From Patescibacteria group bacterium UBA6017 (GTDB lineage: Bacteria; Patescibacteriota; Saccharimonadia; UBA4664): a DNA stretch of 64,000 nt. Below, piece after piece: positions 1 through 17,603 of this stretch. Under the pieces are notes generated by a model. That model saw only the letters and a program-made list of their open reading frames with translations, had not been told where the DNA came from and made no database searches. The DNA is taken from assembly GCA_002429485.1 (NCBI GenBank), contig DIZX01000002.1, positions 3,082-67,081 on the forward strand. Reading direction: 5' to 3'. The stretch's first letter is position 1. Each line of letters starts with the position of its first letter. The position numbers and the translations under genes are program-made.

Positions 1-1
1 G

Positions 2-850
2 CTCGGCCTGGAGGGTGACGTCACTGGGTGGGTGGAGGACCTGCGGTCGGTCTGCCGGGAGGTGGCACGGGTGCTCAAGCCGAGCGGGGCGTTCTGGTTG
101 AACCTCGGCGACAGCTTCTCCAGGCACACCCGCTACGGCGCACCACCCAAGGCCCTGCTGCTGGCTCCGGAGCGGCTGCTGCTGGCGCTGGCTGCCGACG
201 GGTGGATGGTGCGAAACAAGGTGATCTGGGCCAAGACCAACCCGATGCCGTCCTCGAACCGGGACCGGCTGACGCTGACGTGGGAGGGGCTCTATCTGCT
301 GGTGCGGTCCGGGTCCTACCACTTCGACCTCGACGTCATCCGGGAGCCGCATACCAGCACCGCCCCGAAGATCTCCCTTGCCGCGGTGGAGGTGCCGGAC
401 GGTCGCGAGACCTGGGCGGGCCCGCTAGCGGCCAGCCGGGGCGGACTCGCCAAGGTCAAGGCTTCGGGCCGGGCTGGGCACCCGCTCGGCAAGAACCCCG
501 GCGACGTGTGGCGGATCGCTACGAGCGGCTTCCGGGGAGCGCACTTCGCGACGTTCCCGCCTGAGCTGGTGCGCCGCCCGATCCTGGCGACCTGCCCGCC
601 CCTGGTCTGCAGCGATTGCGGCTTGCCCTGGGGACCGGTCCGGGGACGCCCCACCAGCGCGGTCGGGCCGAGGTGTGACCTGGCGGTGGCACCGCGGCCG
701 GGCGTGGTGCTCGACCCGTTCTTCGGGACTGGCACCGTCGGGATCGTCGCCCGTGACCTCGGTCGCGACTGGCTCGGCATTGAGTTGAAGCCCGAATACG
801 TCCAACTGGCTCGCGAGCGACTCGGGCTCGATCTGGAGGCTGCCGCATGA
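2..850 (+). CDS. DNA methyltransferase (N4-cytosine/N6-adenine family, PF01555-like), 5'-partial; the reading frame is open from the window edge
   Basis: Motifs 'VIWAKTNPMP' and C-terminal 'DPFFGTGTVG' (FxGxG) fit a beta-class amino-MTase. GC ~70%. The track ORF begins at an alternative GTG at 32, but the frame is open from position 2. Confidence 0.6.
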   Translation, partial: LGLEGDVTGWVEDLRSVCREVARVLKPSGAFWLNLGDSFSRHTRYGAPPKALLLAPERLLLALAADGWMVRNKVIWAKTNPMPSSNRDRLTLTWEGLYLLVRSGSYHFDLDVIREPHTSTAPKISLAAVEVPDGRETWAGPLAASRGGLAKVKASGRAGHPLGKNPGDVWRIATSGFRGAHFATFPPELVRRPILATCPPLVCSDCGLPWGPVRGRPTSAVGPRCDLAVAPRPGVVLDPFFGTGTVGIVARDLGRDWLGIELKPEYVQLARERLGLDLEAAA

Positions 851-950
851 GCCAGCGCCCTCGGGCCTCAAGTCCTCGTCGGTGGCGTGCAGCCGTCGTC
901 GTCACCCCTCGTCATGGAGTGGCCGGCTGCACCAACACCAAGGAGGACCG

Positions 951-1283
951 ATGTCCGAACCAAGTGGGCGCGGGTACAAGACCCTCGCCGTTCGACTGCC
1001 CGATGAGCTGCACGCACAGCTCGTCCTCATCGCCGGGCTCGGAGGGCTGTCGCTCAACGACGCCATCCGCCAAGGGGTCCAGGAACTCGTCGACCGCAGG
1101 CGCGGCGACGGAGACCTGGCCGCCCAGGCCGCCCAGGCCCTGGAAGAGATGGAACAGGAGTCTGCTATCAAACGGCAGGCCCTGCAGGCCCTGCTCGGAC
1201 CGACCGCCGTCAAGGCGACCCCGTCTGCCGAGCAGCCCACCCCGCCCCGGGGACGCTCCCGGCGCGGGGAGCCCGCGAGCTGA
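951..1283 (+). CDS. Ribbon-helix-helix (CopG/Arc-like) DNA-binding protein
   Basis: 'KTLAVRLPDELHAQLVLIAGLGGLSLNDAIRQGV' looks like an RHH fold. Start ATG at 951 is preceded by AGGAGGA at 941-947; the N-terminal extension in the track (from 882) is probably spurious. Confidence 0.5.
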   Translation: MSEPSGRGYKTLAVRLPDELHAQLVLIAGLGGLSLNDAIRQGVQELVDRRRGDGDLAAQAAQALEEMEQESAIKRQALQALLGPTAVKATPSAEQPTPPRGRSRRGEPAS

Positions 1284-1303
1284 TCGCTCGCGGGAGCTCA
1301 AAG

Positions 1304-1338
1304 CTGTGGGGAGGGCGATTCTTTCGCCCTCCCCACAG
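1304..1338 (+). terminator. Strong GC hairpin downstream of the RHH gene (13-bp stem, no clear U-run)
   Basis: 'ctgtggggagggcg-attctttc-gccctccccacag' is a perfect inverted repeat. Confidence 0.3.
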
Positions 1339-1487
1339 CACCCCACCAATGCGCGATTTCTTGGCGTAAACGACAAAGAATCGGCGCAAGATGCGGATAT
1401 TCTTTGGAAAAGAAATCGTGGAACGTGGGCAACATTTCCTTGTATAATTGGAATGATCGCGAAATTGATTGGAAATGGTTAATTGAT

Positions 1488-1901
1488 ATGGCTCGGACAA
1501 ACACTAAGACGGTAAATGAGGCTAGCGCCAAGCTCGGGGCATACCTGCAACAGCTCCGATTAGAAAGACGCTTAACGATGCGCGGACTGGCCGCCCGCGC
1601 GAAGGTCGACTTCTCCTACGTCTCGCGCCTCGAACATGGTCTCGTCGGTGCCCCCACCGCGCGCCAACTATGGAAGATTGCGCGGGCACTGGACATCGAG
1701 GTCGCTGATCTCTACTCCGAGGCGGGCTTCGTCGACGCCCACGGACTCCCCGGATTCGGACCCTACCTGCGCACCAAGTACCACCTGCCCGATGAGGCCA
1801 TCTCCCAACTGCAAGCGCACTTTGCACTTATCAACGAGAAGTATCACGCGGCCCGAAATGGCGATGCAGCGATCAGTGCTGAGGAGGCACCCGATGCTTA
1901 G
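1488..1901 (+). CDS. XRE-family helix-turn-helix transcriptional regulator
   Basis: 'LQQLRLERRLTMRGLAARAKVDFSYVSRLEHG' is an HTH_XRE pattern. The internal ATG at 1488 follows an AT-rich promoter-like stretch with TATAAT at 1443-1448. Confidence 0.6.
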   Translation: MARTNTKTVNEASAKLGAYLQQLRLERRLTMRGLAARAKVDFSYVSRLEHGLVGAPTARQLWKIARALDIEVADLYSEAGFVDAHGLPGFGPYLRTKYHLPDEAISQLQAHFALINEKYHAARNGDAAISAEEAPDA

Positions 1902-2442
1902 CACGATTACCCGGCTGCGCGACCTTGTCCCGCTACGCCGCCTATCGACACCCGAGGCGCTGCGCGTTGCGGAGGACCAGGCCAACCGGCTCTTGCACCT
2001 GTCCGGAATCACGGAGCCCCCGCTTGCCGAGGACGTCATCGCCGGAATGCCCCACATCCAAGTCGAACGTGTTGTGCCCGCCAGAGCGCTCGCCGCGACA
2101 CAGTGGTCGGACGGGCGCTGGCTGATCATCATCAACGGCGCGCTCAGCCAGGGGAGACAGCGTTGGAGCCTGGCCCACGAGGTCAAGCACATCCTCGACC
2201 ACCCATTCGTGACGATCCTCTACCCCCGGGGCTCCACGGAACGGGCCGAGCAGGCCTGCGACTACTTCGCCGCCTGTCTCCTGATGCCCCGGCGCTGGCT
2301 GCGACGAGCCTGGTCCCAGGGCACCCCCGACGTCCGGACACTCGCCCGCCTGTTCGGAGTGACACCAGCAGCTGTCACGGCCCGGCTACTACAGGTTGGC
2401 CTGATTGACCCAACATCACATCACCTCGTAAGGGAGGCCTGA
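1894..2442 (+). CDS. ImmA/IrrE-family metallopeptidase (HEXXH), partner of the XRE regulator
   Basis: 'SLAHEVKHILDHP' is an HExxH motif. ATG at 1894 follows GAGGAGG (1881-1887). It overlaps the XRE stop by 8 nt, which suggests translational coupling. Confidence 0.6.
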   Translation: MLSTITRLRDLVPLRRLSTPEALRVAEDQANRLLHLSGITEPPLAEDVIAGMPHIQVERVVPARALAATQWSDGRWLIIINGALSQGRQRWSLAHEVKHILDHPFVTILYPRGSTERAEQACDYFAACLLMPRRWLRRAWSQGTPDVRTLARLFGVTPAAVTARLLQVGLIDPTSHHLVREA

Positions 2443-2443
2443 C

Positions 2444-4207
2444 ATGAGCGAACCCGTGTATCTGCAGGAACCGGAGACAGTGCCGACGGCGACGCTCCCC
2501 CGAGCCGAGGTGGCGACCAGGCGCGCGGTGATCTACCTGCGGGTGTCGACGGCCGACCAAGCGCACGCGGACGGAGCGTCCGAGGGATACTCAATCCCCG
2601 CGCAGCGCGAGGCCTGCACGAGCAAGGCCCAGGACTTGGGCGCAGTGGTGGTGGGCGAATTCGCCGACCGTGGAGAGTCAGCCAGGTCTGCCGCCCGACC
2701 AGGGCTGCAGCAGATGTTGCGATTGTTGGCCGAGCACAAGGACGTTGACTTCGTCATCGTGCACAAGGTTGACCGACTGGCCCGCAACCGCGCCGACGAC
2801 GTACAGATCCAGATCGCGATAGAAAAGGCCCGAGCCCGGTTGATCAGCGTGACCGAGAGCGTCGACGACACCCCCTCAGGCAAGCTCGTGCACAACATCA
2901 TGGCCGACCTCGCCGAGTTCTATAGCGCCAACCTGGCCAGCGAGATCCTCAAAGGCTCCACCCAAAAGGCCAGCATGGGCGGTACCCCCTACCGCGCCCC
3001 AATCGGCTACCTGAACGTGCGCTACTTGGTCGAGGGCCGGGAGATCCGGACCATTGAGATCGACCTGGAGCGGGCCCACTTCATCCTGCGGGCCTTCGAG
3101 CTGTACGCGACGGGCGAGTACTCGCTCAAATCCCTGCACCTCCAATTAACGGCTGAGGGGCTGAGTACACGGCCAACACCCAGACAACCGGCGAAGCCGA
3201 TGGCGCTCTCGAAGTTCGCTAACCTGCTGCGCAACCGCTACTACCTGGGGGTGGTCACCTACCGAGGCGTAGAGCACCCCGGCAAGCACCCCGGGATCAT
3301 CGAGCAGGGCCTGTTCGATCGCGTGCAGCGCGTGCTGGAAGAGCGAGAGCAGCACACGATCAAGCAGCGCCGCAACCGCCACTATTTACGGGGGCTGCTG
3401 ACGTGTGCACGATGCAAGAGCCGCATGCTTTACACGACCGGCAAGGGCAAGGGCGGCGGCACTTTCGACTACTACGTCTGCAGCAAGCGCCACAAAGGGG
3501 CCGCTTGCGACCTCACCTACCTGTCAGCCGCCGACATCGAGGACCGGATCGAGCGCGCCTGGCACCTCTGGGTCCACCTGGACCGACTGGACGGCGAGAC
3601 GGTGGGACGCGATCTGGAGGCGATGGTGCTCGGCGACAAGGACCACCCGGAGCGGATCGCGCGCGCTCAGCGGCAGATCGCCCGCCTCGAATCCGAACGC
3701 CTCAAACTCGTGCAGATGGCCTACGCCGACGCCATCCCAATGAGCCTGCTGAAGACCGAACAGGAACGGATCACCATTCAGAGCCAGCAGGCCGAGCAGG
3801 AGATCACGAAAGCGCAGCCCAGCCAGGACATCATGAAGACCTACGAGCAGGCACGCGCCCTCATGAAGCGAGGGGCCGACGCCTACAGGGTCGCCGGACC
3901 CGACGCCCGTCGACTTCTCATCCGAGCCTTCTTAGCCCTGATCACGGTCGACACCGACGAGGAACACGCCACGCTGGCCAGCCCATGGCTGGAGATCCAA
4001 TCGGCCGCTGCCTCTGTACGTCAGGTGCGACCCCTCCCCCAACGCCCTGTGCGCCATGGTGGGCGCGTCGACCAGATCAGGAGGGCCTCAATGTCGAACC
4101 CCGGCCCTCTTTCTGAGGACCGGGGTTCGACTATGAATCCTTTGGTGGAGCTGAAGGGATTCGAACCCTTCACCTCTGCAATGCGAATGCAGCGCTCTAC
4201 CAAATGA
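2444..4207 (+). CDS. Large serine recombinase (resolvase catalytic domain + recombinase domain + Zn ribbon), integrase of the element
   Basis: 'AVIYLRVSTADQ' is the catalytic-Ser resolvase motif; cysteine pairs 'CARC...CSKRHKGAAC' follow. The ORF runs past the GC shift into the tRNA-Ala sequence before the first stop. Confidence 0.8.
   Translation: MSEPVYLQEPETVPTATLPRAEVATRRAVIYLRVSTADQAHADGASEGYSIPAQREACTSKAQDLGAVVVGEFADRGESARSAARPGLQQMLRLLAEHKDVDFVIVHKVDRLARNRADDVQIQIAIEKARARLISVTESVDDTPSGKLVHNIMADLAEFYSANLASEILKGSTQKASMGGTPYRAPIGYLNVRYLVEGREIRTIEIDLERAHFILRAFELYATGEYSLKSLHLQLTAEGLSTRPTPRQPAKPMALSKFANLLRNRYYLGVVTYRGVEHPGKHPGIIEQGLFDRVQRVLEEREQHTIKQRRNRHYLRGLLTCARCKSRMLYTTGKGKGGGTFDYYVCSKRHKGAACDLTYLSAADIEDRIERAWHLWVHLDRLDGETVGRDLEAMVLGDKDHPERIARAQRQIARLESERLKLVQMAYADAIPMSLLKTEQERITIQSQQAEQEITKAQPSQDIMKTYEQARALMKRGADAYRVAGPDARRLLIRAFLALITVDTDEEHATLASPWLEIQSAAASVRQVRPLPQRPVRHGGRVDQIRRASMSNPGPLSEDRGSTMNPLVELKGFEPFTSAMRMQRSTK
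4093..4131. repeat. Perfect 12-bp inverted repeat (gtcgaaccccgg / ccggggttcgac) with a 15-nt spacer at the element/tRNA junction
   Basis: Seen directly in the sequence, 12 nt from the tRNA-Ala 3' end. It resembles a tRNA T-arm fragment (GGGGTTCGA). Confidence 0.45.
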
Positions 4208-4218
4208 GCTACAGCCCC
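4143..4218 (-). tRNA. tRNA-Ala (anticodon CGC), CCA encoded
   Basis: The reverse complement reads GGGGCTGTAGCTCATTTGGTAGAGCGCTGCATTCGCATTGCAGAGGTGAAGGGTTCGAATCCCTTCAGCTCCACCA. A cloverleaf folds; G3:U70 is the Ala identity pair; the anticodon loop is TTCGCAT. Confidence 0.85.
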
Positions 4219-4267
4219 AAGATGTGTCGAATCGACTGATCTATTGTGCCTGGTTGTGGACGGAGCG

Positions 4268-6097
4268 TCAAACGCTAGCGGGAGTAACCGGCGAGCCTGA
4301 CCGCGCGGCATCATCTTCGGCGATGAAATCGCCGGATTGGTGACTCCAGAGGCTGGCGTATTGGCCGCCAGCGGCGAGGAGCTCGGTGTGGCTGCCGTCT
4401 TCGATGATTTTGCCGTCTTCGAGCACGAGGATACGGTCCATGCGGGCGATGGTGCTGAGGCGGTGGGCTATCACGATGGCGGTGCGGCCCTCCATGAGGC
4501 TCCAGAGCGCAGACTGGATAAGGCGCTCGGATTCGCTGTCGAGGGCGCTGGTGGCCTCGTCGAGGGCCAGGATGGGGGCATCTTTGAGCATGGCGCGGGC
4601 GATGGCTACACGCTGGCGTTGGCCGCCGGAAAGTTTGATGCCGCGCTCCCCTACTAACGTGTCGTAGCCTTTGGGAAGTTTCTCGATAAATTCGTGGGCG
4701 TGGGCGCGCTTGGTGGCGCGCACGATCTCCGCTTCGGTGGCATCAGGTTTGCCGTAGGCAATGTTTTCGCGCAGGGTGCGGTGAAAAAGCAACGGCTCCT
4801 GGGGCACGTAGCTGATGGCTCGGCGAAGGTCGTCCTGGGTGACGTGGGCAATGTTTTGACCGTCGATGGAGATGTGCCCGCTGTCGAGGTCGGCAAAGCG
4901 CAAGAGGAGGCGGGTGAGGGTGGTTTTGCCGGAGCCGGAGCGGCCCACGAGGCCGATCTTTTCACCGGGGCGAATGTGGAGATTGAGCCCGCTAAAGAGA
5001 GGGTCGTCATTTTCGCCATGAGTGAAGGTCATGTCTTTGAACACGATGTCGCCGGCGGTCATGCGGGAAGGCTCGGGATCGACCGGGTCCTTGATGCCGG
5101 GCTTGATCTGGAGGACTTCGATCATATCGTGCGAATCACCAAGGGCCCGGTTGTACTGGCGCAGGACGCTCTGGAATTGCCAGAGGTTAGAAGAGAGCGT
5201 GCCGGTGTAGGTAACCATCAGGAAGATGGTAGCGATATCGGCCTTAAACACGCCGACGCCGATGACGGCGATAACCAGAGCCGTGATCCGCAGACTCTGG
5301 GAGAGGAATGACGCATAGTTTTGGCGCCTAATGAGGGCCGAAACCGTCCGCAGACCGGCCTCTCGGACTTCATCGTTTGCGAGACTATAGCGAGCCTCTT
5401 CGCTGCTGATGGCGGCAAAGGTTTTTATAGCCGAGACGTTGGAGAGGCTGTCGGCCAGATAACCGGTTTGGCGGTTTTGAGCGCCGGCCTCGGCGGCGCT
5501 GGCGGCGCTAACGGCCCCGGAGAAGTAGATGGTCCCAGCCAGATAGGCTATAGAGATTATGAAAAGAATTGCCACATACCCAGGCGTGCGGGGGGCGAGG
5601 ATAACGACCGTCGCGATAATGGAGACGATAAGTGGGACAAGGTTAAACAGCGTGGCGTCGGCCAGCCGCATGTAGGCCCCAATGAGCTTATTGGTCTGAG
5701 ACACGAGCGAGCCGGCAAACCGATTGGCGTGGAAGCTGGCGCTCATGGTCATGAGATGCGAGAAGACGCGCCGGCTGAGATCACGGGCCACGTTGACCTC
5801 CAGATGGACATCCAGCCAAATGACAACCCGCCACCCGATTACCCCGCCGAGGAGGGCGAGGGCTGAATAGGCAATTAGCTGCGGACCAAAGCTGGCCCAG
5901 ACATTCTGATGATCGTAATTGCCCGTGCTGATAGTGGCCAGCACTTGAGCAAGAATGTAGGGCATCACGAAGTCACTGGAAACGACGAGGGCGGGCACGA
6001 GCAGGGCCAGCGCCCAGACGATGGCCGGGTAACGGGTGGCGTGATTCCAGAAAAAGCGGAGAGTCCGCATGGTATGAATTTTTTTGGGCTGAGCCAT
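4268..6097 (-). CDS. ABC transporter, fused permease/ATPase (MsbA/lipid-exporter-like)
   Basis: Six N-terminal TM helices; Walker A 'GRSGSGKTT'; signature 'LSGGQRQRVAIARAM'. Confidence 0.8.
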   Translation of the reverse strand: MAQPKKIHTMRTLRFFWNHATRYPAIVWALALLVPALVVSSDFVMPYILAQVLATISTGNYDHQNVWASFGPQLIAYSALALLGGVIGWRVVIWLDVHLEVNVARDLSRRVFSHLMTMSASFHANRFAGSLVSQTNKLIGAYMRLADATLFNLVPLIVSIIATVVILAPRTPGYVAILFIISIAYLAGTIYFSGAVSAASAAEAGAQNRQTGYLADSLSNVSAIKTFAAISSEEARYSLANDEVREAGLRTVSALIRRQNYASFLSQSLRITALVIAVIGVGVFKADIATIFLMVTYTGTLSSNLWQFQSVLRQYNRALGDSHDMIEVLQIKPGIKDPVDPEPSRMTAGDIVFKDMTFTHGENDDPLFSGLNLHIRPGEKIGLVGRSGSGKTTLTRLLLRFADLDSGHISIDGQNIAHVTQDDLRRAISYVPQEPLLFHRTLRENIAYGKPDATEAEIVRATKRAHAHEFIEKLPKGYDTLVGERGIKLSGGQRQRVAIARAMLKDAPILALDEATSALDSESERLIQSALWSLMEGRTAIVIAHRLSTIARMDRILVLEDGKIIEDGSHTELLAAGGQYASLWSHQSGDFIAEDDAARSGSPVTPASV

Positions 6098-7977: not shown

Positions 7978-9216
7978 TTAGTAGATGTAGCGGAATGAGC
8001 CTGAGGAGACGGTTCGCGAGCTAACGCGATTCCAGCCGCCGTTGAAGTTCATCTCGCTGACGGTCACACTGCCGCCCGAGACGCTCTCGACGTAGGCCAC
8101 GTGGCCGAAGTATCCGGCACCGGTCCAGGCGATGGCGCCAGGTACGGGGGTTGAGCCGACCGAGAACCCGGAGGCCTGGGCGTTGTAGTACCAGGCGTTG
8201 GCGTTGCCCCAGTTTGAGGGTACGCTGCGGCGTGATGCCACATAGTAGGTGCAGTAGCCGTACGAGTAACCGTTGCCGCTAAAGCCGAAGTGGGTGAGCT
8301 GGGGAGCGGACGGCCCCGTACTCGCACCGGCGACGCGACCAAAGCTGGAGACGGGGGCAGGTGCAGTCTTGGGGGCTTCCTGCTTGACGCCGTCGGGCAC
8401 GATAATCTTCATGCCAGCCGACAGACCTTTGACTTCAGCGTTGTTGAACGACAGTATTTGAGCCGCATTGGCGCTGAAGGCACCGGCAATGCTATCGGCG
8501 GTGTCACCCGCTCCCACGGTGTAGAGTAGGCCGCTGACGGGCAGGATGGTGAGTACCTGGCCGGGCTTAATCATGTCGGCATCATCGAGATTGTTGGCCC
8601 ACTTGAGGGTTGAACTCGTGATATTGAACTTGCTGGCGACGCCCGAAAGTGTGTCGCCCGACTGGACGGCGTAGGTGCTGATGTCGCGAGTGGCATTACC
8701 GGCCGTGGAGACAACTTGCCGCTTGGCAAGCGAGGTATCATCGGCGCTGAGCAAGGCAACCTGCTGGGTTTTGGTGGTGGCGGTTTTGGCGGCGTCACTC
8801 TGGATCATCAGCTCGCTTTTGCCAGCCATGTCGGCGGCGATGCTTGCCGTGGCGGCCGAATCGAGCGAAGAACCGATCCCGGCATCAGCCGACATCAATC
8901 TCACGGATACTGAATGCGCTCGGTCGGGGGTGTTGCCCAAAACGAGTAACGCAGCGGCACCGAGAAGGCCGATGTGCGCTAAGTAGCGCGGTCGGTAGGC
9001 GTGGGTAAGGACTTTTGAAGCCGTCAAAGAGTGTTTGACGATCTGTTGTGAAATTTCGAATTTACGGGCAGTGCGACGAGGTTTGGCCGCTGCTGGGGTT
9101 TTTATGTTCGAAAATGACTCTGACGTACTTCCGATTCCTGAACCGAATTGGCCCATTGGGAATTGATCTAGGGAAGCACTGAGGACATCTCTACTGATAA
9201 TGTTTCTCCACCTCAC
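7978..9216 (-). CDS. Peptidoglycan hydrolase with two LysM domains and a C-terminal CHAP domain
   Basis: LysM repeats 'YAVQSGDTLSGVASKF...' and 'YTVGAGDTADSIAGAF...'. The C-terminus 'GYCTYYVA...GHVAYVESV' is the CHAP Cys/His pattern. The track start is an alternative GTG; an ATG alternative is at 9156. Confidence 0.75.
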   Translation of the reverse strand: MRWRNIISRDVLSASLDQFPMGQFGSGIGSTSESFSNIKTPAAAKPRRTARKFEISQQIVKHSLTASKVLTHAYRPRYLAHIGLLGAAALLVLGNTPDRAHSVSVRLMSADAGIGSSLDSAATASIAADMAGKSELMIQSDAAKTATTKTQQVALLSADDTSLAKRQVVSTAGNATRDISTYAVQSGDTLSGVASKFNITSSTLKWANNLDDADMIKPGQVLTILPVSGLLYTVGAGDTADSIAGAFSANAAQILSFNNAEVKGLSAGMKIIVPDGVKQEAPKTAPAPVSSFGRVAGASTGPSAPQLTHFGFSGNGYSYGYCTYYVASRRSVPSNWGNANAWYYNAQASGFSVGSTPVPGAIAWTGAGYFGHVAYVESVSGGSVTVSEMNFNGGWNRVSSRTVSSGSFRYIY

Positions 9217-9570
9217 TCTTCGTTTTATGACACGCTGGGGCGCATACGCGAAGGTAAGATACTACTTGCGGGCCCGTCCTTCCCCCGATTAATTTCGGGG
9301 CAGAAGAATTTCGACCTGGTTAACACTTCGTTTCGACGGAACAAGTAGTAAATTGCGTCACACTAACATCTCACCTCGAGACATTGCGCTAATGCTTATC
9401 AATTTACCTTCGTAGTCTAGATCTGAGCCCATACACCTGTCAACCGAGCTTTAGGCGGTATGAAGCTCTAAAAAACGGCGAAAAGAATGCCAATTTTTAG
9501 GAGATCTGCCAGGTATCACACGTTTCATATATGTCAAATCCGAGGCTGGAAATTGCTTGGCTTATTTTTT
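9217..9570 (-). promoter_or_regulatory. Long (~350-nt) AT-rich 5' leader/promoter region of the LysM-CHAP hydrolase gene; candidate cis-regulatory RNA
   Basis: No ORF. TTGACA-like -35 boxes on the minus strand (~9440-9520). A hairpin 'ccccgaaattaatcggggg' lies close to the start. Confidence 0.2.
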
Positions 9571-9571
9571 T

Positions 9572-10558
9572 CTAGAGGTGCTTCTTGATATTAAGCTGAT
9601 GTTCGGCATAAGTTTTGGCAAAATATGTTTTTCCGTCTTTGCCCGAGAGAAAAAACAGGTAGTCGGTGCCGGCAGGATGAGCTACCGCGTCCATGGCGCT
9701 AAGCCCTGGGCTACAGATTGGTCCCGGCGGCAAACCAACGACTCGGCGCGTATTGTAGGGCGAATTGAGATCGGTGTTAAATGGCACGCCCAGCAAGTCG
9801 GCCGCGTAATGAGTGGTCACATCGGAGCCAAGGGCCTGGCCGAGCTTTAGGCGCTTGAGGAAGATCTGAGCGACCACTGGACGGTCGGCGGCGTTACTAA
9901 CCTCGCGCTCAACGATAGAGGCCAGAGTGAGCCCCTGATGCAGGTTGAGGCCCTCGGCGGCAAAGGCCTGAGCGTACTCCGGGCCGACGCGCTTACCGAA
10001 ATTGTCGAGCATATCGCCGACGAGACTGGCGGCTGTGGTGCCGGAGCCGATCTGGTAGGTGTCGGGAAAGAGGTAGCCCTCCAGACTGACACCGGCGGGG
10101 TTGCCGGCGAGAAAGGTTTGCGTATGCTCGGAGGCCAGAGCGGCCGCAAAGGAGGCCTTGGAGATGCCAATGGTTGCGGCGGAAGCCTCGATTTGCGTCA
10201 GAGTGTAGCCTTCGGGCACCACTATTCGCCGGGAAAGCGTATGGCCCCCGACCAATAATTCCGCAATAGCATCCCCGGATAGCGTCGGCGAAATCGAATA
10301 CAGCCCGACCTTGAGGCGGGGTCGCAGCAAGTGAAAGTTAACGTATGTCACAAACGCATTTCGATCGCGCAACAGACCGGCATCCTTGAGCCTCTGGGCG
10401 ATATGTTGGGCGTTTTCACCTGTAGACACGGCGAAATCCCTGGCCTCACCAGTGGAGGCAACGGGGCGCAGACCGAGGCGATAGGTGATGTATATAGAGC
10501 CAATGATGATGATCGGGATTGCCAGCAATCCCGCTGTGGTGAGACGGCGTTTGGTCAT
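9572..10558 (-). CDS. mltG: Endolytic murein transglycosylase MltG (YceG-like)
   Basis: N-terminal TM then a YceG domain ('LYSISPTLSGDAIAELLVGGH', 'GLPPGPICSPG'). Confidence 0.85.
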   Translation of the reverse strand: MTKRRLTTAGLLAIPIIIIGSIYITYRLGLRPVASTGEARDFAVSTGENAQHIAQRLKDAGLLRDRNAFVTYVNFHLLRPRLKVGLYSISPTLSGDAIAELLVGGHTLSRRIVVPEGYTLTQIEASAATIGISKASFAAALASEHTQTFLAGNPAGVSLEGYLFPDTYQIGSGTTAASLVGDMLDNFGKRVGPEYAQAFAAEGLNLHQGLTLASIVEREVSNAADRPVVAQIFLKRLKLGQALGSDVTTHYAADLLGVPFNTDLNSPYNTRRVVGLPPGPICSPGLSAMDAVAHPAGTDYLFFLSGKDGKTYFAKTYAEHQLNIKKHL

Positions 10559-10944
10559 ATGGAGTCTAAGTAATCCTGCAGAATTATGGCTGCGGCCTCA
10601 GCGTCAATCGCCTCTTTGGCATAAGATTTTCCGCTGGCTTTGAGGCGGTCTTCGGCCACCCCGGAAGTACCGGCCTCGTCTTGGTAGATCGGATCGATAT
10701 GGAGGCGACGCCACAGAATATCGTCGCTAAAACGGTGGACGGCAAGGGTCTGAGGAGTGTCCTGACCATCTAGGCCGCGCGGTAAGCCGACCACGACGGC
10801 TTCAAACGGTCCCTCACTCTCGATGGCGGCCACCAGCTCGTGCGGCGCCACCGTGCGCAGCGGCGAGGCTATCTTGACCGATGAATCGGCCGTTGCGAGG
10901 CCCACGCGCTTAGCGCCATAATCTATTCCTAAGTACTTGCCCAA
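10555..10944 (-). CDS. ruvX: Holliday-junction resolvase-like RuvX/YqgF
   Basis: 'LGIDYGAKRVGLATAD' is the RNase H-like YqgF N-terminus. The probable TTG start at 10944 removes the unlikely 60-aa extension in the track ORF. Confidence 0.7.
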   Translation of the reverse strand: MGKYLGIDYGAKRVGLATADSSVKIASPLRTVAPHELVAAIESEGPFEAVVVGLPRGLDGQDTPQTLAVHRFSDDILWRRLHIDPIYQDEAGTSGVAEDRLKASGKSYAKEAIDAEAAAIILQDYLDSI

Positions 10945-10963
10945 AACATGCCTACCTGAGTGA

Positions 10964-12661
10964 TTATTTATTACCTGCGACTTGAATTGTAATAGATATT
11001 TTATCAGGTCTTGACGGCAACTTGGAGACCCAACCGGGCCAAATCGAAATATCGGCGCGTGTAACCCCCGGCAATCCGGAGGCGATGGTACTGGCGTCGC
11101 CGTAACGCTGACCCTTGAGCTTGCCGGCAATATCGGCTTTATCGAGCCTGGTGCCGCCGAAAGCCTCGGTAGTGAGATGGAAGCTCTGTCGGCCGGTAGA
11201 ATCTTTGTCGGTAGCGGTCACCTGAGCCGCGCCCAGGCCGTCCTCGTAGATCTGATTTTTATCACCGACCTGCTTTTGCTCCTGAGAGTGGAGCAGCGCC
11301 TCATATTCTGACTGCTTGACGGCCAACACGGTGTAGGTGACTTTCATCGCTAGACTGGCGGTGTCTCCTTCGGCGCCGACGGCCGGTGACGGGGCGATGC
11401 TATCGACGGAGGAGGTTTGCGATGCGGGTAGCGCTATGAATCCGCTCGGCACTCGAGCCTGAAGATCGCGCGTGGAGTTATCCTTGTCTTTGTCGAGCAA
11501 AGCAGCCTTCTCGGTATCAACGTCGGACTGGGCTACGATCGTGGCCGTCCTGGTAGTACCGCCGGACATCTGGGCGCCTTGGCCGTAAATGTTTGCCTGC
11601 ATGGCGCCGCTGTAACCAGGGATGGTATACGTCGCTGGTGCTTCATTATAACTATCACCGGCCTGGTCGGCTTCAACGGGAATTGGATCGGATTTACCGG
11701 GTGTTGGAGTGAACGGGAAGACAGGGGCTAGCGTAACTCCCGGGACGGAGCTATCAGCTTTGCTTCGGAATATCTTGCCATCCGGTGCCTGGAATCTGGT
11801 TCCGGCTACTAGCGCGTGGGAGCTAGTGTCGTATTTATTGTAGACGGTAATCGTCCCGCTAGCCTTCGTACCAACGTCCTTCTTTCCGGTGGGCGTGAAC
11901 GGACCATTAAGATCCTTGCTGATAGTCACCAGCTGGCCGGCTAGGACGGCCTTGGCCTGGTCAGTGGTCTTGAGGGTTGGATCAACGGCGAAGGTAGTGT
12001 CTACCTCCACCTTGGTGCCGGTAGCGTAGAGCGTCACCTTTGCGCCGGTAAACAGATACATGAGGCCAAGATAGGAGACGATCAGGAAGGCGGCGAGCCC
12101 TACCCACATCACGCGCTTTTGCAGGCGCCCAAAATTGGGAACTTTGGGTCCACCCTTTTTGGCGGCATCGGTCGCCGCGGCGGCGGAGGCACCCGCTACG
12201 CCGGCTGCAGACTCATCTGAAGGCCCGGGGATGTCGGAGGGCGGCGGACCGTCGCTGATAGGCATTCGTTTCATTATGGGCTTTTTGAACATCTTCGACT
12301 TTGACTCTGCTGGTATCGGCGGAGGTTCGGGATCATCGGCTTCGATGACTTCTTCATTGGTCAGGAGTGCTTCGGGAATTTTGACGTCGGCAATAACGGG
12401 CTTGGCACCAATCGAGGGGGCCACGGCCAAGCCAACGCGCGCAGCGAGCTCGGTGGCGATGCGGTCGCCCGTCACCAAAACAAGCTCTTTGCCACCCTGT
12501 TCGGCGGCCTTTTTGAGCAATTTCAGGTTGATAATGCTTTGGAGCATCGTGGACCGCTTGGGCACCACGATCTGGACCGAGCCCGCAGCGGACTTGCTCA
12601 GCTTATCAATAGCCGACGTTATATCTTCATCGACCTCAAGGTAGAGGGCGTTGTCTTTCAT
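10964..12661 (-). CDS. Hypothetical membrane-anchored protein (565 aa; N-terminal cytoplasmic domain, one TM, large extracytoplasmic domain)
   Basis: No recognisable motif. TM at 'VMWVGLAAFLIVSYLGLMYLF'. It lies in the alaS...ruvX-mltG neighbourhood. Confidence 0.5.
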   Translation of the reverse strand: MKDNALYLEVDEDITSAIDKLSKSAAGSVQIVVPKRSTMLQSIINLKLLKKAAEQGGKELVLVTGDRIATELAARVGLAVAPSIGAKPVIADVKIPEALLTNEEVIEADDPEPPPIPAESKSKMFKKPIMKRMPISDGPPPSDIPGPSDESAAGVAGASAAAATDAAKKGGPKVPNFGRLQKRVMWVGLAAFLIVSYLGLMYLFTGAKVTLYATGTKVEVDTTFAVDPTLKTTDQAKAVLAGQLVTISKDLNGPFTPTGKKDVGTKASGTITVYNKYDTSSHALVAGTRFQAPDGKIFRSKADSSVPGVTLAPVFPFTPTPGKSDPIPVEADQAGDSYNEAPATYTIPGYSGAMQANIYGQGAQMSGGTTRTATIVAQSDVDTEKAALLDKDKDNSTRDLQARVPSGFIALPASQTSSVDSIAPSPAVGAEGDTASLAMKVTYTVLAVKQSEYEALLHSQEQKQVGDKNQIYEDGLGAAQVTATDKDSTGRQSFHLTTEAFGGTRLDKADIAGKLKGQRYGDASTIASGLPGVTRADISIWPGWVSKLPSRPDKISITIQVAGNK

Positions 12662-12713
12662 GAACTAAGACTACCATAATTGTTACGGTTGCGTTATGGT
12701 AATAAGCTTTATC

Positions 12714-12742
12714 TTGACTTTTCGCATACTAGTTGTTATAAT
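12714..12742 (+). promoter_or_regulatory. Canonical sigma70-type promoter TTGACT-17-TATAAT for the 12810 gene
   Basis: Seen directly: TTGACT 12714-12719, 17-nt spacer, TATAAT 12737-12742. Confidence 0.5.
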
Positions 12743-12809
12743 GTATTTGAGCATTTACGCTTGCAGCCTCCAAATAGCGCACCTGTGCGCCCGTCCCGAA
12801 AGGCCCGTC

Positions 12810-13484
12810 ATGAACAAACCTACTGTCGCCGTTGACTGGGAAGTGGACACGACTCCTCCTAAGACCACCGAAGAGATAGAGGGCCCAGTCTCCAAAGCAC
12901 TTACCTCGCTGGTTGCGGGCGCGATTCTTATCGGGGTCGTTTATGTGATCATAGTGGTCCTGTTTAGTCTGGCTAAGACTAGCACCCATCCGGCCGTGAA
13001 GACGCCTGTGCGGATGTCTACCTATCTCGCTGCTATCGGCTTCAATGCCGATGCACCAACAGTGAGCATAGGCAGTCCGGTACTCGTTCCGGCAGGTGAA
13101 GTCACCGGCAGCTCGGGTTCGGTGCTTGGCACCGGGAGCGGTTCCGTTCAGGGAACGTTCAAGCCAGGGCTGTATTACCCGGTGAAGATCACGATCGGCA
13201 CCAAGACGACCACGATCGTCCTCAATGGGGATCGCCAACTGGTAGCTGACAGCTCTGTCGCGCGGCCATCTCTGCAGTTCAAGACTGACCCGGCACTAAC
13301 CCAGGCCAATACGACGACATACAACTGCTGGAGCTGGAACCTGCTCAGTGAGTGCACGACGACGAAGCGCCCAGCGCTAGTTCAGTCAAAACTCGCAGAG
13401 TTGCGAAATGGGGCGGCGGCACAGCTGATCGAAGAGAACATCGGTACGCTCACCCTTCCGCCCGGAATGATGCCCAAGAACTAG
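12810..13484 (+). CDS. Hypothetical single-pass membrane protein with Thr/Gly-rich extracytoplasmic region
   Basis: Internal ATG at 12810 downstream of the promoter. TM at 'LVAGAILIGVVYVIIVVLF'. Confidence 0.45.
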   Translation: MNKPTVAVDWEVDTTPPKTTEEIEGPVSKALTSLVAGAILIGVVYVIIVVLFSLAKTSTHPAVKTPVRMSTYLAAIGFNADAPTVSIGSPVLVPAGEVTGSSGSVLGTGSGSVQGTFKPGLYYPVKITIGTKTTTIVLNGDRQLVADSSVARPSLQFKTDPALTQANTTTYNCWSWNLLSECTTTKRPALVQSKLAELRNGAAAQLIEENIGTLTLPPGMMPKN

Positions 13485-13549
13485 CCAACGGCGGTTCGGA
13501 CACGACACTCAAAATGCCTCAAGGCATGAGACAGAAGGGAGGTCACCAG

Positions 13550-13801
13550 ATGGAGCCCATGAAGCCCGAAGATCAATGGCTTAACGGCTTCACAACTTCG
13601 AAACGGCACTCCGAGTACCTGAGAGGGGTGAAAAGCGACAAGGCAGCGCGCAAAGCAGCACGGCTTAGCTTCCTCCGCGTTACCCAGCTCATGTCCCGGA
13701 TCACATCCCGGAAGGCCACTCGGAAACTCCGGCTGGTAGAGGACGGCAAGCCCCACAACCAGAGGCTGCTCGAAGAGCTTCCGACTCAGGATGACGTGTA
13801 G
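13550..13801 (+). CDS. Hypothetical small basic protein (83 aa)
   Basis: ATG at 13550 preceded by AAGGGAGG (13535-13542); Lys/Arg-rich; followed by a terminator. Confidence 0.35.
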   Translation: MEPMKPEDQWLNGFTTSKRHSEYLRGVKSDKAARKAARLSFLRVTQLMSRITSRKATRKLRLVEDGKPHNQRLLEELPTQDDV

Positions 13802-13813
13802 TTCTGATCGGCG

Positions 13814-13866
13814 GTGATAGTGGGGTTGTTTCGGCAGCCCCACTATCACATACCTATTTATTTCTC
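13814..13866 (+). terminator. Rho-independent terminator (12-bp perfect stem 'gtgatagtgggg'/'ccccactatcac' + T-rich tail)
   Basis: Seen directly in the sequence. Confidence 0.5.
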
Positions 13867-13977
13867 GCGGTTACTATCTGGTAGCTGCGATTTTTGCTGT
13901 TAATGGGCCTAAACGACTTCCATAATTGTTATGGTTAAGTTATAGTATTGCCAATAATACATGTGAGCGGATTAACT

Positions 13978-14256
13978 ATGGCTAAGGCTAAAAAGGTAAA
14001 GAAATATAAGGCGCTACTTCACGTAGACCGCCTGTTGATGGTCACCGGGCTTGCGGCGGCTACAAGCTACATCGTACGAGGTACGTGGGTAGCGATGATG
14101 TTCGAGGCAGTAGCGATTGTGCTGGGAATACTCTGGGCAGCGCGAGCCGTGATGACCAACCCCGCGCGGGAATTTCGACTTCTGGCAACCCTGATCCTGG
14201 TACTCCTCACCTGCCTGCTGGCGGTGTATCTGGGTATCGCCGACGGGCTGCTCTAG
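13978..14256 (+). CDS. Hypothetical small two-TM membrane protein
   Basis: 'MAKAKKVKKYK...' followed by two hydrophobic helices. The ATG at 13978 lies downstream of the palindromic promoter motif. Confidence 0.4.
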   Translation: MAKAKKVKKYKALLHVDRLLMVTGLAAATSYIVRGTWVAMMFEAVAIVLGILWAARAVMTNPAREFRLLATLILVLLTCLLAVYLGIADGLL

Positions 14257-14279
14257 ACCTCCGCAACTAGATCGTAAAA

Positions 14280-14308
14280 ATAGCCGCCGTTTGGCGGCTA
14301 TTTTTTTT
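14280..14308. terminator. Bidirectional rho-independent terminator (atagccgcc-gttt-ggcggctat flanked by A5 and T8)
   Basis: Seen directly. It sits between the convergent 13978 gene and the ftsA stop. Confidence 0.6.
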
Positions 14309-14322
14309 GGAGAAATATTCTA

Positions 14323-15615
14323 CTATGCCGAAATGGCGCGGGCGAGTTTGCGAACCAGTGTGTCGGTGGTGGTTTCGCCGCCGGCCTGATCGAGACCGAG
14401 GTTGGCCAGACCCATAGGAGTAATGTCGGCATAGCTGGTGAGCTTGCCGGTTTTGTCGAACACGCGATTAACTTCGCCCGGACTGATGTGATTGACGATG
14501 GGTTTGCGCGCAAAGGGAAGGTTCTTGTACCAATCTTTGCCTTTGAGGGCTTCGGCGATCTGGGGCAGGCCGGTGCCGCCGCCGCAGAGGAGGATTTTGG
14601 CGGGGAGGTGCTCGACACGTTCAAACTCGGCGAGGCTGATTTCCACACCCGAAAGCCACACCTGGATGTCGGCGTTCACGGCTTCTTCGACGAGCTTGGC
14701 GGCGCGGGCGGCCAGTTTGCCGGCGGAGTAAGCTATTTTCATTTCTTCGGCTTTTTCGAAGCTGCAATTGGCGACCTGGGCGATGCGCTTGGTGAAGCTG
14801 CGGCCGCCGATGGCGAACATTTTGGTGCCTTCGACGCCACCGTTGTTGACGAGGGCGATGTCGGTGGTGCCGCCGCCAATGTCGATGAAGATGGCGCTAA
14901 ATTCGCCGGAATCCTGGCCGCCGACGGATTTTGCGACGGCGAAGGGCTCGGCGGCGATGTTGACGAGGTTGAGATCGAGGTCCTGGGCTACGGATTGGAG
15001 CGCACCCAGGTGGACCATGGGGGCGAAGGCGTTGAAGAGCTGAATGCTTACGTCGCGGCCCTGGAAGCCAATGGGGTTGGTCACGCGATAGCCGTCGATC
15101 TGGACGTCGACAATGGCGGTATTGACGAGCTTCACTTCGAGCTCCTTGTAGCCGGTTTCCCAAGTGAGCTGCTCGCGGGCGCGCTCAAAGGCCCGGTACT
15201 GCACACGGTCGAGGATTTTGCGCAGCTCGGTCATGTCGATGGGGTCGGACGGCACAGCACGCTTGTATCTCACGACCGTAGAGGCGCCCTTCACGAGTTC
15301 ACCGGCGATACCGATGACGACGTCTTTGGCCACCACGCCGGCCATTTTTTCGGCCATTTTGAGGGCGGCGTCGCAGTTTTCGACCACGCCGGTGATATCG
15401 GTGACGGCTCCGGACTGCATGTCGGTGAGGCGCTGGCGTTGGCGGCCGACACCGATAATATCCACGTGCGAGGGAGCGCCGGAAGCAGGGTCTAGAACCA
15501 CTTGGCCGATCAAGGCCTTCACGAATTCAGTGCCAATATCGAGCGCCAGCAGATAACGGGGACCCGTGTTTCGGCTGCGGAGTCTGACGAATTTTTCGAG
15601 TAATCTAGAGGACAT
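14323..15615 (-). CDS. ftsA: Actin-like ATPase, cell-division protein FtsA-like (PilM not excluded)
   Basis: 'LALDIGTEFVKALIG' is an actin-fold phosphate-1 motif; 'LLCGGGTGLPQIAEAL' is a typical FtsA pattern; 430 aa. Confidence 0.6.
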   Translation of the reverse strand: MSSRLLEKFVRLRSRNTGPRYLLALDIGTEFVKALIGQVVLDPASGAPSHVDIIGVGRQRQRLTDMQSGAVTDITGVVENCDAALKMAEKMAGVVAKDVVIGIAGELVKGASTVVRYKRAVPSDPIDMTELRKILDRVQYRAFERAREQLTWETGYKELEVKLVNTAIVDVQIDGYRVTNPIGFQGRDVSIQLFNAFAPMVHLGALQSVAQDLDLNLVNIAAEPFAVAKSVGGQDSGEFSAIFIDIGGGTTDIALVNNGGVEGTKMFAIGGRSFTKRIAQVANCSFEKAEEMKIAYSAGKLAARAAKLVEEAVNADIQVWLSGVEISLAEFERVEHLPAKILLCGGGTGLPQIAEALKGKDWYKNLPFARKPIVNHISPGEVNRVFDKTGKLTSYADITPMGLANLGLDQAGGETTTDTLVRKLARAISA

Positions 15616-15684
15616 GCTTGACCCTTATAGACTAGATTGTAGCGCTTATGCTCGCTGGAACCAAGCGAGAATTCGCTTCGGGCT

Positions 15685-15975
15685 TTAGCGCTTCGGGGCG
15701 GGTGTTGGGGTGGCGACTACTTTGGGTGACACGGTGGGGCTAGGAGTCGGAGTGGTCACCGGAGTAGGCGTGGGCGTCGGGGTGGCGGCCAACTGAGCCT
15801 TGGCCTGTTCAACCTGGCGACGGAGACTGTCGTTATTGCCGCCTACCTCAACGTTCTTTTGCTCAAGATCATTTACGTGATTAACCAACATGTACCCGCC
15901 GACTCCGACGCCAATAACGAGTCCCGCAATGACGGCCCACAATAACATAATTAGTTTCCGGCTTGAATCTTTCAT
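15685..15975 (-). CDS. FtsB/FtsL-like septum-formation initiator (TM + coiled coil + Pro/Thr-rich tail)
   Basis: TM 'IMLLWAVIAGLVIGVGVGGYMLV', then a coiled coil 'LEQKNVEVGGNNDSLRRQVEQAKAQL'. Confidence 0.45.
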   Translation of the reverse strand: MKDSSRKLIMLLWAVIAGLVIGVGVGGYMLVNHVNDLEQKNVEVGGNNDSLRRQVEQAKAQLAATPTPTPTPVTTPTPSPTVSPKVVATPTPAPKR

Positions 15976-15999
15976 ATGGCTTTGAATCCTAACTGATTA

Positions 16000-16599
16000 T
16001 TAGTTGGTAAGAGTGGGGAGGGCTGCATTTTTCAGGGCCGCCCTGGCAGCGGCAAGCTCGTCACTGCCGGCCTGATCGTCGGCGCAATTCCAGTAGGACG
16101 GCCTGTATGAGTAAGTATAACCGTTAATCGTCTTCGTGAAGGGCAGGTTGGTTGGGGATTTGGTCGGGAATGGTGTCGCCGTGGCTTCGGCTCCTTGAAA
16201 GGGGCTCGGAGTCGCAGTCGGCTTGGGCGTTGGTGTCGCTTTGGCCTTTGTTCGCGTGAGCGTCCCAAGTGCTCCGGCTTTACAGTTCGGGTATTTGGCA
16301 AACAATTTCTTCGTCGTGAAGCCGGCCCAGGTATTGTCGCCGTCTTTGATCTCACCATAGACTAGGTCCTCGATAGGATCATTCACCGTCATTCTGACGC
16401 CATATAGCAATATCTTTATACTGGCGATGCCGGCAACAACGGGTTTAACCGGCGCTGGGGTGGAAACGGTGGGCGTGGGCACGATAGGCGTGGGTATCGG
16501 GGGTGCATCTGCCCGCATGCGAGGCAGGGTGAAGGTCAACCACACGCATACTGCCAACCCGATAAGGACACCAAGGAAAATTTGCTTGCCGAATCGCAT
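16000..16599 (-). CDS. Hypothetical membrane-anchored protein with PT-rich linkers
   Basis: N-terminal TM, repeated 'TPTP' low-complexity segments and a C-terminal domain with two Cys. Confidence 0.4.
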   Translation of the reverse strand: MRFGKQIFLGVLIGLAVCVWLTFTLPRMRADAPPIPTPIVPTPTVSTPAPVKPVVAGIASIKILLYGVRMTVNDPIEDLVYGEIKDGDNTWAGFTTKKLFAKYPNCKAGALGTLTRTKAKATPTPKPTATPSPFQGAEATATPFPTKSPTNLPFTKTINGYTYSYRPSYWNCADDQAGSDELAAARAALKNAALPTLTN

Positions 16600-16604
16600 C
16601 AGAC

Positions 16605-17087: not shown

Positions 17088-17246
17088 AAGTCACTCCTAA
17101 TATTCTTCCGAGAGCTAGTATACCAAACTTAAGCTTGATACGTGGAGTGTTTTTAGATTAAAATCGTTGCATCAAACTTATGCTTACATATATTACATTG
17201 CTTATTTACCTAAAATGTGGTTTAATGCTTAAGTTCATATTCGGTT

Positions 17247-17593: not shown

Positions 17594-17603
17594 AATGGAC
17601 ACG

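Follow-up and report, generated by a model that had tools for sequence, protein, structure and literature searches.

The first 4,142 nucleotides of the DNA presented here, a 64,000-nt stretch from Patescibacteria group bacterium UBA6017 (assembly GCA_002429485.1, contig DIZX01000002.1, positions 3,082 to 67,081; this whole stretch is referred to as the window), are likely to represent the right end, carrying regulation and integration functions, of an actinobacterial-type integrative and mobilizable element (IME) that sits at the 3' end of a tRNA-Ala(CGC) gene in a Saccharibacteria chromosome. Actinobacteria are the usual host group of Saccharibacteria, and the presence of the element has the appearance of gene transfer to these epibionts from bacteria of the sort to which they attach. 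Few bacteria of the candidate phyla radiation (CPR), Saccharibacteria included, can be cultured or genetically manipulated, and they live attached to host bacteria; an intact element of actinobacterial type in such a chromosome would be physical evidence that DNA passes from the group of hosts into their epibionts, and would provide a sequence-based clue to the hosts touched by this uncultured lineage.

Genes and composition of the right end

The window opens inside the element; the part further left was recovered on L001, a 213-kb ENA contig found by exact-protein look-up of the recombinase, in which window position 1 corresponds to position 7558 and the sequence is identical. Other loci of the analysis are designated in the same manner. 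The features within positions 1-4218 of the window are as follows:

1..850, plus strand: orphan N6/N4 DNA methyltransferase, beta-class, CcrM-like (PF01555, E 3.4e-35; partial NCBIfam CcrM-like matches)
951..1283, plus strand: putative small ribbon-helix-helix (RHH)/HicB-like DNA-binding protein, 110 aa (weak PF05534 HicB match, E 5e-5)
1303..1339, no strand: perfect 16-bp inverted repeat with a 5-nt spacer (repeat I13; L001 8860-8896)
1404..1901, plus strand: predicted repressor of the XRE helix-turn-helix family, 165 aa from a TTG start (PF01381, E 3.6e-11; PF13560)
1894..2442, plus strand: ImmA/IrrE-type M78 metallopeptidase, 182 aa (PF06114, E 1.5e-18)
2444..4207, plus strand: large serine recombinase (LSR), 587 aa (PF00239, E 5.6e-31; PF07508, E 6.5e-10; PF13408, E 3.2e-12)
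4096..4128, no strand: hairpin/palindrome with a 12-bp stem (repeat I5), within a wider inverted repeat at 4088-4136
4122..4154, no strand: right junction (attachment site attR), with the half-site motif at the same place in L092, L094, L099, L093 and L103
4143..4218, minus strand: intact host tRNA-Ala(CGC) (ARAGORN; Rfam 68.7 bits)

The window holds the 3' 283 codons of the methylase gene, which starts 137 nt before it and encodes 328 aa in full (L001 7421-8407). The 110-aa protein that follows is read as RHH-type from its weak HicB-family match and is kept at the same position in L092, L093 and L094 with 56-70% identity; it is a candidate for either a regulator or a recombination directionality factor, the latter role being also conceivable for ORFs (open reading frames) of 55-84 aa in the element. 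The 16-bp inverted repeat is placed 3' of the RHH gene and 5' of the AT-richer XRE promoter region; the start of the XRE gene is called differently by different gene callers (165, 137 or 107 aa), and an ATG at 1489 is possible. The ImmA gene overlaps the XRE gene by 8 nt to give an ImmR/ImmA-like pair, and ImmA has 71-76% identity in L092 and L093. The LSR has an N-terminal resolvase catalytic domain and C-terminal Recombinase and Zn_ribbon_recom domains; its catalytic motif YLRVSTADQ is common to 7 family members, and the nearest named NCBIfam families, CcrB and XisF, both score far under the cutoff. A terminator and promoter scan of positions 1-4400 gave no signal above shuffle expectation. 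This gene content (methylase, RHH protein, XRE with ImmA, large serine recombinase) had been proposed in an earlier reading of the letters made without database searches (the sequence-only reading), and Pfam matches were obtained for all of its members, the HicB/RHH one being weak.

Composition sets the region apart from the rest of the window. Positions 1-4142 have a GC content of 65.7%, compared to 55.8% for the remaining 59.8 kb, where the mean over overlapping 4.1-kb segments is 55.7% (sd 1.6, max 57.9). Measured against the host part, 1-4142 lies at a tetranucleotide L1 distance of 0.400, and host segments at 0.152±0.017 (max 0.187). GC at third codon positions is 87% in the methylase and 82% in the recombinase, as against 65.8±5.9% in 40 host ORFs. 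GC content also varies within the region, from 70.8% in the methylase gene to 63-67% in the recombinase gene and down to 58% in the XRE region. Both the compositional break at ~4.1 kb and the strong third-position bias that the sequence-only reading had described are therefore found on measurement, and the tetranucleotide and codon comparison it had suggested returns the region as an outlier in both respects; its figure of ~70% GC applies to bases 1-1250 only (68.8-73.0%), the whole of 1-4142 being at ~66%.

The host chromosome

The best genome matches of the ABC (ATP-binding cassette) transporter flanking the element are Saccharibacteria/Saccharimonadia metagenome-assembled genomes (L016 at 87%, L013 at 82% and many others at 40-60%), and on sequence grounds the host genome is that of a Saccharibacterium. 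L016 and L013 display the same order of ABC transporter and tRNA-Ala(cgc) with no high-GC block, and the tRNA-Ala(CGC) of the window is 100% identical to the tRNA-Ala of these element-free relatives. A search for an empty tRNA-Ala site in related genomes, as had been proposed beforehand, is thus answered by L013 and L016, which lack the element at the same tRNA-Ala; at strain level no empty site was found, exact-protein look-ups with the ABC transporter, Obg and ImmA giving element-bearing contigs only. Saccharibacteria DNA lies on either side of the element within single contigs of 213-231 kb, and at least eight samples yield the identical sequence, in assemblies of MEGAHIT-style (ENA), Logan and JGI origin. 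All copies are ~100% identical, so that they represent one population and not separate acquisitions.

The mobilization module left of the window

The high-GC block reaches leftward to about L001 2500-2790 and encodes upstream of the window, in order, four small ORFs (187, 84, 55 and 55 aa), a 757-aa ATPase, a Replic_Relax protein and the methylase. The ATPase matches TrwB_AAD_bind, T4SS-DNA_transf and TraG-D_C and is of TraD/VirD4 type in NCBIfam; its match to the FtsK/SpoIIIE-type profile PF01580 lies at the Walker A region, with an E of just 0.07. The adjacent relaxase is found at the following position:

L001 6632-7420, outside the window: Replic_Relax relaxase, 262 aa (PF13814, E 1.5e-42)

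PF13814 represents the MobC relaxase class (PMC5357655). The core element of ~9 kb is therefore made up of small ORFs, a VirD4-like coupling protein, a MOBC relaxase, methylase, RHH, XRE, ImmA and LSR, and all 11 core ORFs are full length with their motifs kept, for example YLRVSTADQ and the Walker A motif GPTGVGKST. The closest plasmid homologue of the 757-aa ATPase is 44% identical and belongs to a plasmid of Embleya (Streptomycetaceae), where it is annotated by NCBI as a conjugative DNA transfer protein of a type IV secretion system (T4SS); it directly precedes a replication-relaxation protein inside a T4SS cluster with PrgI-family, ATP-binding and NlpC/P60 proteins. Of a cluster of this type the element retains only the pair of coupling protein and relaxase.

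Among the element ORFs no match to VirB4 or other T4SS genes was obtained with Pfam and NCBIfam, and none to RepSA, RepAM or Prim-Pol with Pfam; terminase, capsid, tail and lysis genes are absent from L001 748-11699. As a coupling protein and a relaxase are present, and VirB4 and phage structural genes were not found, the element is considered to be an IME rather than a prophage; the phage/ICE-type module (ICE, integrative and conjugative element) of the sequence-only reading is accordingly retained as a mobile element and given up as a phage. The leftward extension of the contig, also its suggestion, yielded the further element genes and no second att site. One assembly (L181 ~5005-5063, JGI 3300012001; equivalent to L180 ~5034-5062) carries a 29-nt tandem duplication that turns the coupling-protein gene into ORFs of 100 and 667 aa, which may be genuine variation or an artefact of the assembly. 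The coupling protein of L183 and the recombinase of L184 look frameshifted owing to N-gaps in JGI scaffolds, and mutations were rejected as the cause.

Integration site

At over 20 loci of the family the LSR gene meets the 3' end of a tRNA gene encoded on the other strand, either entering it or halting a short distance ahead, and the tRNAs adjoining family LSRs belong to at least 11 species: Ala (ggc, cgc, tgc), Arg, Ser, Val, Pro, Met, Ile, Lys and Leu. Integration of serine recombinases in tRNA genes has been called rare (PMC3218068); it is the rule in this element family, an arrangement described as rare being common in one group of high-GC elements. The integrase-next-to-att arrangement that had been read from the letters is thus a recurrent one, and the recombinase gene does adjoin the tRNA 3' end as had been claimed; it does not end there, as the ORF continues 65 nt into the tRNA antisense.

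On the element side, members of the Ala-targeting subgroup terminate in GGGGTTCGA-N12, and next comes TGGTGGAGCTGA, the reverse complement of the tRNA ...TCAGCTCCACCA end; attR of the window copy likewise consists of GGGGTTCGA-N12 and then the core TGGTGGA(GCTGA), which equals the last tRNA nucleotides, and crossover is predicted to occur within window 4143-4150. At the internal junctions of two tandem arrangements (L093 5846-5898 and L096 11673-11725) this element arm continues into TGGTGGA-N16-TC(G/A)A(G/A)C; these junctions suggest an attP-like P-core-P' organization, the core mimicking the acceptor end of tRNA-Ala (TGGTGGA, i.e. ...TCCACCA). The T-arm motif of the tRNA, TCGAACC, is at N11 from the heptamer TGGTGGA, and at N16 in the tandem junctions; counted from a centre near G5-G6 of TGGTGGA (tRNA nt 71-72), the motif lies at a distance of 17-18 bp for the attP arms, as against 13 bp for the tRNA arm. 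Large serine integrases have a 5-bp offset between attP and attB half-sites, and the difference of 4-5 bp between attP and tRNA arms would agree with that offset.

The att sites of serine integrases are short, with a common core of a few bp and no long repeats; consistent with this chemistry, a search for flanking direct repeats of the tRNA 3' end, 10 nt or longer, was negative in 21 of 22 loci. All hosts examined agree in the first 12 nt of the tRNA-Ala 3' end, and the next 14 nt, with the T-loop, are nearly identical; such similarity across phyla would account for the integration of the element in a Saccharibacterium. A serine integrase with a natural target at the tRNA-Ala 3' end that accepts DNA in a Saccharibacterium would be a candidate tool for engineering the genomes of this group.

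The remaining locus, L165, is the only one with a clear flanking direct repeat, the 12-mer CCATGGTGGAGG at 2996-3007 and 18482-18493, which covers the 3' end of tRNA-Ala and would make the element ~15.5 kb long. A motif resembling A(A/T)AAGA is common to the element-side arms of loci L099-L170, 8-9 nt ahead of the tRNA end. L093 1-11775 (ENA ERZ25039501 contig_2749) features two family elements in tandem, with recombinases at 4234-6048 and 10001-11773; the tRNA-Ala adjoining the second element is truncated at the anticodon loop, and a fragment of a tyrosine integrase lies beyond it at 14569-14865. L096 has its right junction followed by a P'-like arm instead of a tRNA (11673-17713 region); beyond that arm are a 448-aa ORF and a pair formed by an OLD-TOPRIM/AAA_15 protein and a UvrD-helicase, which looks Gabija-like, and its left arm (1209-1683) contains a ParE toxin with a small ORF upstream.

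C-terminal tail of the recombinase

Protein conservation of the LSR stops near residue 520 (...ATLASPW.EI) and a variable linker comes next; the last ~40 codons translate a stretch conserved as DNA, which contains the hairpin, the att half-site and the tRNA antisense. The reading frame is open across the att site in all seven full-length family LSRs examined, so that integrated and excised copies would encode different C-terminal tails. The hairpin at 4096-4128 has a DNA fold z of -6.3, and its right arm holds the GGTTCGA motif of the element-side half-site. It is conserved in eight elements, with pairing in 92.7% of cells and changes on both sides in 6 of 12 pairs, a result equalled by none of 500 shuffles; pairing falls sharply once the partner columns are slid. 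The hairpin could be a terminator without a U-tract that replaces the displaced terminator of the tRNA, or a palindromic protein-binding site.

Relatives and likely source

Syntenic elements are present in L092-L096, L099 and L103 with protein identities of 54-80%, and the gene order common to relatives is small ORFs, coupling protein, Replic_Relax, methylase, RHH, XRE, ImmA and recombinase. The nearest recombinases are 56-74% identical; few of them are named, and these come from Frankiaceae, Mycobacteriales, Pseudonocardiales, Acidimicrobiia and 'Actinomycetota', so that the recombinase search advised by the sequence-only reading led to actinobacteria wherever a name was attached. A metagenome scan with a coupling-protein alignment added 80 further loci, all at 54-72% GC. 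Among ~85 other family loci none has Saccharibacteria-like flanks, i.e. flanks resembling the host genes of the window, which makes the copy in a Saccharibacterium an exception among the family members sampled. In the flank of L092, ribosomal protein L27 scores 124-150 bits against 8crx, 9qt5, 5o60 and 5v7q and ~100 bits against the other listed bacterial ribosomes; of the four, 8crx, 5o60 and 5v7q are ribosomes of Cutibacterium and Mycobacterium. The source of the element is most likely an actinobacterium, as judged from these homologues and from GC content, and the earlier proposal of a foreign integrative element at the tRNA-Ala 3' end with a donor of actinobacterial type is supported, relatives of the element sitting in high-GC DNA.

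Left end and traces in sister genomes

Nucleotide homology with the closest element, L095 (80% identity), begins at L001 2786. Two genes further left are linked to the family:

L001 748-1977: p409, linked through synteny with L177 and through p383/p404 homologues
L001 2137-2493: p118, linked through synteny with L177

They form an arm of ~1.75 kb left of the core with a GC content of 53-55%. L177 repeats the arrangement, with counterparts of p409 (55% identical) and p118 (61%) next to small ORFs and a family coupling protein, and the p409/p118 part is low in GC there too; weaker p409 relatives of 383-404 aa occupy the same position in L092, L094, L096, L121, L132, L137, L140, L150 and L164. 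p409 has no Pfam or NCBIfam match and only two word-sharing homologues in a large protein database. As p118 and p409 are linked to the same module in the unrelated contig L177, they are considered to be element-derived, and could be either the left arm, for a total of ~10.95 kb, or the remnant of an earlier tandem element. A left boundary drawn solely at the GC step (L001 ~2500-2790) was rejected, since L177 keeps the p409-like and p118-like genes beside the same module; a GC criterion would miss this low-GC arm. The element thus reaches at least 5 kb, and probably 6.8 kb, to the left of the window, and has a total length of at least 9 to 11 kb.

The left att was sought through repeats of the tRNA 3' end of at least 10 nt, scans for TGGTGGA/TGGTG and for TCGANCCC, a P' regular expression and short-word BLAST on eight left arms. 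Candidates at L001 2715 (TTGGTG), 2274 and 3126 (TGGTGG) and 754 (TGTTGGA, seen by eye) were all rejected, because they fall within conserved ORFs, are not accompanied by an outer motif at the expected distance, or show too weak a match. Extension of the contig to the left with the 1819-aa neighbour gave short fragments only, and the ImmA look-up gave 550 nt more.

Of the two close relatives, L016 (87% identical) has no trace of the element. In L013 the core is not present; a frameshifted p409 fragment (4241-4536) remains, with the same junction to the next host gene (p1819) and 82% nucleotide identity. L013 also has a P'-like site, TGGTGGA-N16-TCGAACTGC, at 4026-4057, 1.1 kb from tRNA-Ala with an EamA-type transporter gene between, the significance of which is estimated to be marginal. 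The P'-like site and the p409 fragment may be decayed remains of earlier integrations. L016 contains, at 8085-8130, a fragment similar to a tRNA T-arm, GGGACGCGAGTTCGAAACTTCCC, which lies ~130 nt downstream of its tRNA-Ala and is not called as a tRNA by ARAGORN.

Proposed mechanism and alternative explanations

The XRE and ImmA proteins are predicted to keep the element silent until induction; the serine recombinase, together with a putative directionality factor, would then excise it, and the MOBC relaxase and coupling protein would pass its DNA to the T4SS of a helper. In the recipient the orphan methylase is predicted to shield incoming element DNA from restriction, and the recombinase would join attP, with its core mimicking the tRNA-Ala acceptor end, to the 3' end of the tRNA-Ala gene, where the T-arm motif TCGAACC would serve as the host half-site motif, 4-5 bp nearer the centre than in the attP arms. 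Either conjugation from the attached host or uptake of DNA could have brought the element into the Saccharibacterium.

Several points weigh against the proposal of a mobile actinobacterial IME. The donor phylum is deduced from GC content, named homologues and one ribosomal protein; the L013 remnant suggests an old or repeated association and not one recent transfer. No helper T4SS is seen in the 64-kb window, and the recovered copies, all ~100% identical and integrated, include neither a circle nor an empty site. The 2.8 kb left of the core contain no TGGTGGA-N16-TCGARC and no direct repeat of at least 10 nt, and as the left att was not found, the extent given for the element is approximate and its present mobility putative. 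Immobilization is a possibility to be taken into account, if a clearly less probable one: a relic which entered site-specifically, has since lost its left att and persists as a fixed island that no longer excises would account for the missing left site, for the presence of the element in every contig bearing the flanking genes and for the coupling-protein gene split by the 29-nt tandem duplication in one assembly. However, all 11 core ORFs are full length with motifs retained, the remaining apparent indels are scaffold N-gaps, and since serine-integrase sites share few bases the left site may simply be unrecognisable. It is improbable, more so than immobilization, that the element belongs to a long-resident, Saccharibacteria-adapted lineage of the same family, which was inherited vertically or circulates among Saccharibacteria with no recent actinobacterial acquisition. 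The pseudogene fragment of p409 in L013 with its shared p1819 junction, the P'-like site 1.1 kb from tRNA-Ala in the same genome and the host-like GC of the p118/p409 arm would all fit such a lineage; against it, the core is still 10-15 GC points over the host and the strongest tetranucleotide outlier, none of the ~85 other family loci has Saccharibacteria flanks, L016 is devoid of any trace, and the low GC of the left arm is intrinsic to the family, being low too in the high-GC contexts of L177, L092 and L094.

A prophage or phage remnant with a serine integrase is very improbable: an XRE/ImmA pair, a methylase and a serine integrase are also common in temperate phages, but 11 kb of the element hold no terminase, capsid, tail or lysis gene and instead a coupling protein and a MOBC relaxase, and the best phage integrases are just 27-33% identical over 56-75% of the protein. 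A chimera of actinobacterial and Saccharibacteria contigs, joined in assembly at the shared tRNA-Ala 3' end, is the least probable of the alternatives. The identity of the first 12 nt of this end in all hosts, and near identity of the next 14 nt, would provide a place for such a join; the shared stretch of at most 26 nt is however far under the assembly k-mer (k119, judged from contig names), and the tRNA is 100% the Saccharibacteria version, with Saccharibacteria DNA on both flanks of the element. A chimera at ~4140 had been raised by the sequence-only reading; the recovery of both flanks and the same joins in ENA, Logan and JGI assemblies, three pipelines and at least eight samples, effectively refutes it. 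The preferred explanation remains an actinobacterial-type IME at tRNA-Ala(CGC). A doubtful extension of it makes the family a shuttle between actinobacteria and Saccharibacteria epibionts, which would use the near-universal acceptor/T-arm of tRNA-Ala as a landing pad across phyla, would have invaded the clade more than once, and would gain a switch of integration state from the differing integrase tails; the multiple invasions are read from the intact copy here and the decayed remnant in L013, and the switch from the integrase ORF and conserved hairpin spanning the att site.

Comparison with known systems

The modules of the element are each known already (MobC IMEs, AICEs (actinomycete integrative and conjugative elements) with serine recombinases, ImmR/ImmA, att rules), and it is the host that is unusual. 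In Gram-positive bacteria, IMEs are known that combine a relaxase of the MobC class (PF13814) with a coupling protein and an integrase of the serine or tyrosine type (Coluzzi et al. 2017, PMC5357655; Guédon et al. 2017, PMC5704250). The element resembles these in having its own integrase, a PF13814/MobC relaxase and a coupling protein with no mating-pore genes, and in its small size (~9-11 kb) and modular structure with variable arms; it differs in its high-GC lineage of actinobacterial type, its CPR host and its use of an LSR to integrate at the 3' end of a tRNA gene. Serine recombinases at tRNA-Leu are known from AICEs, the combination being called rare in 2011 (PMC3218068), and the Mycobacterium elements of that report are likewise high-GC, ~10 kb in length and integrated in a tRNA gene by a serine recombinase. 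Unlike AICEs, the element has no FtsK/SpoIIIE-type TraB and no RepSA, RepAM or Prim-Pol, and carries in their stead a MOBC relaxase with a VirD4-like coupling protein. As TraB and a replication initiator are lacking from it, the element is filed as an IME; the location in a tRNA gene it does have in common with AICEs.

ICEBs1 has a tyrosine integrase at tRNA-Leu, a full T4SS and an ImmR/ImmA module. The element shares with it an XRE repressor gene overlapped by an M78/ImmA peptidase gene beside the integrase, and differs in its serine instead of tyrosine integrase, its target tRNA-Ala instead of tRNA-Leu and its lack of a full T4SS. The att-site rules of large serine integrases were reportedly laid out by Rutherford and Van Duyne in 2013; the LSR shares with the phage integrases phiC31, Bxb1 and A118/LI the three-domain architecture, the absence of long flanking repeats and, in the arms proposed for its attP, an outer motif 4-5 bp further out than in the tRNA arm, while its target is a tRNA 3' end and not a protein gene, its ORF crosses the att site, and its identity to phage integrases is at most 33%. 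A survey of Patescibacteria found 109 relaxases, MOBC being the commonest class and 39 being near a coupling-protein gene, and viewed them as acquired mobile elements; it gives no element boundaries, integrases, att sites or donors (PMC12102498). The MOBC relaxase beside a coupling protein in the present element is like the cases of that survey. A literature search brought up no description, for Saccharibacteria, of any element of the family, of its att site or of the group that donated it.

Host part of the window

The rest of the window encodes housekeeping genes, among them AlaRS, MetRS, MnmA, KsgA, PcrA and pyruvate kinase. A DUF348-G5-transglycosylase protein is encoded by the host at window 32488-33570 (minus strand) with ordinary GC; the architecture is RpfB-like, a type characteristic of Actinobacteria. 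Window 9000-9750 is low in GC (46-47%) around and upstream of the 5' end of a LysM/CHAP gene, the start calls of which give 392 or 305 aa. Large host ORFs at window 4268-64000 are nearly all on the minus strand, and the cumulative GC skew climbs steadily; strand bias and skew of this region are consistent with one replichore.

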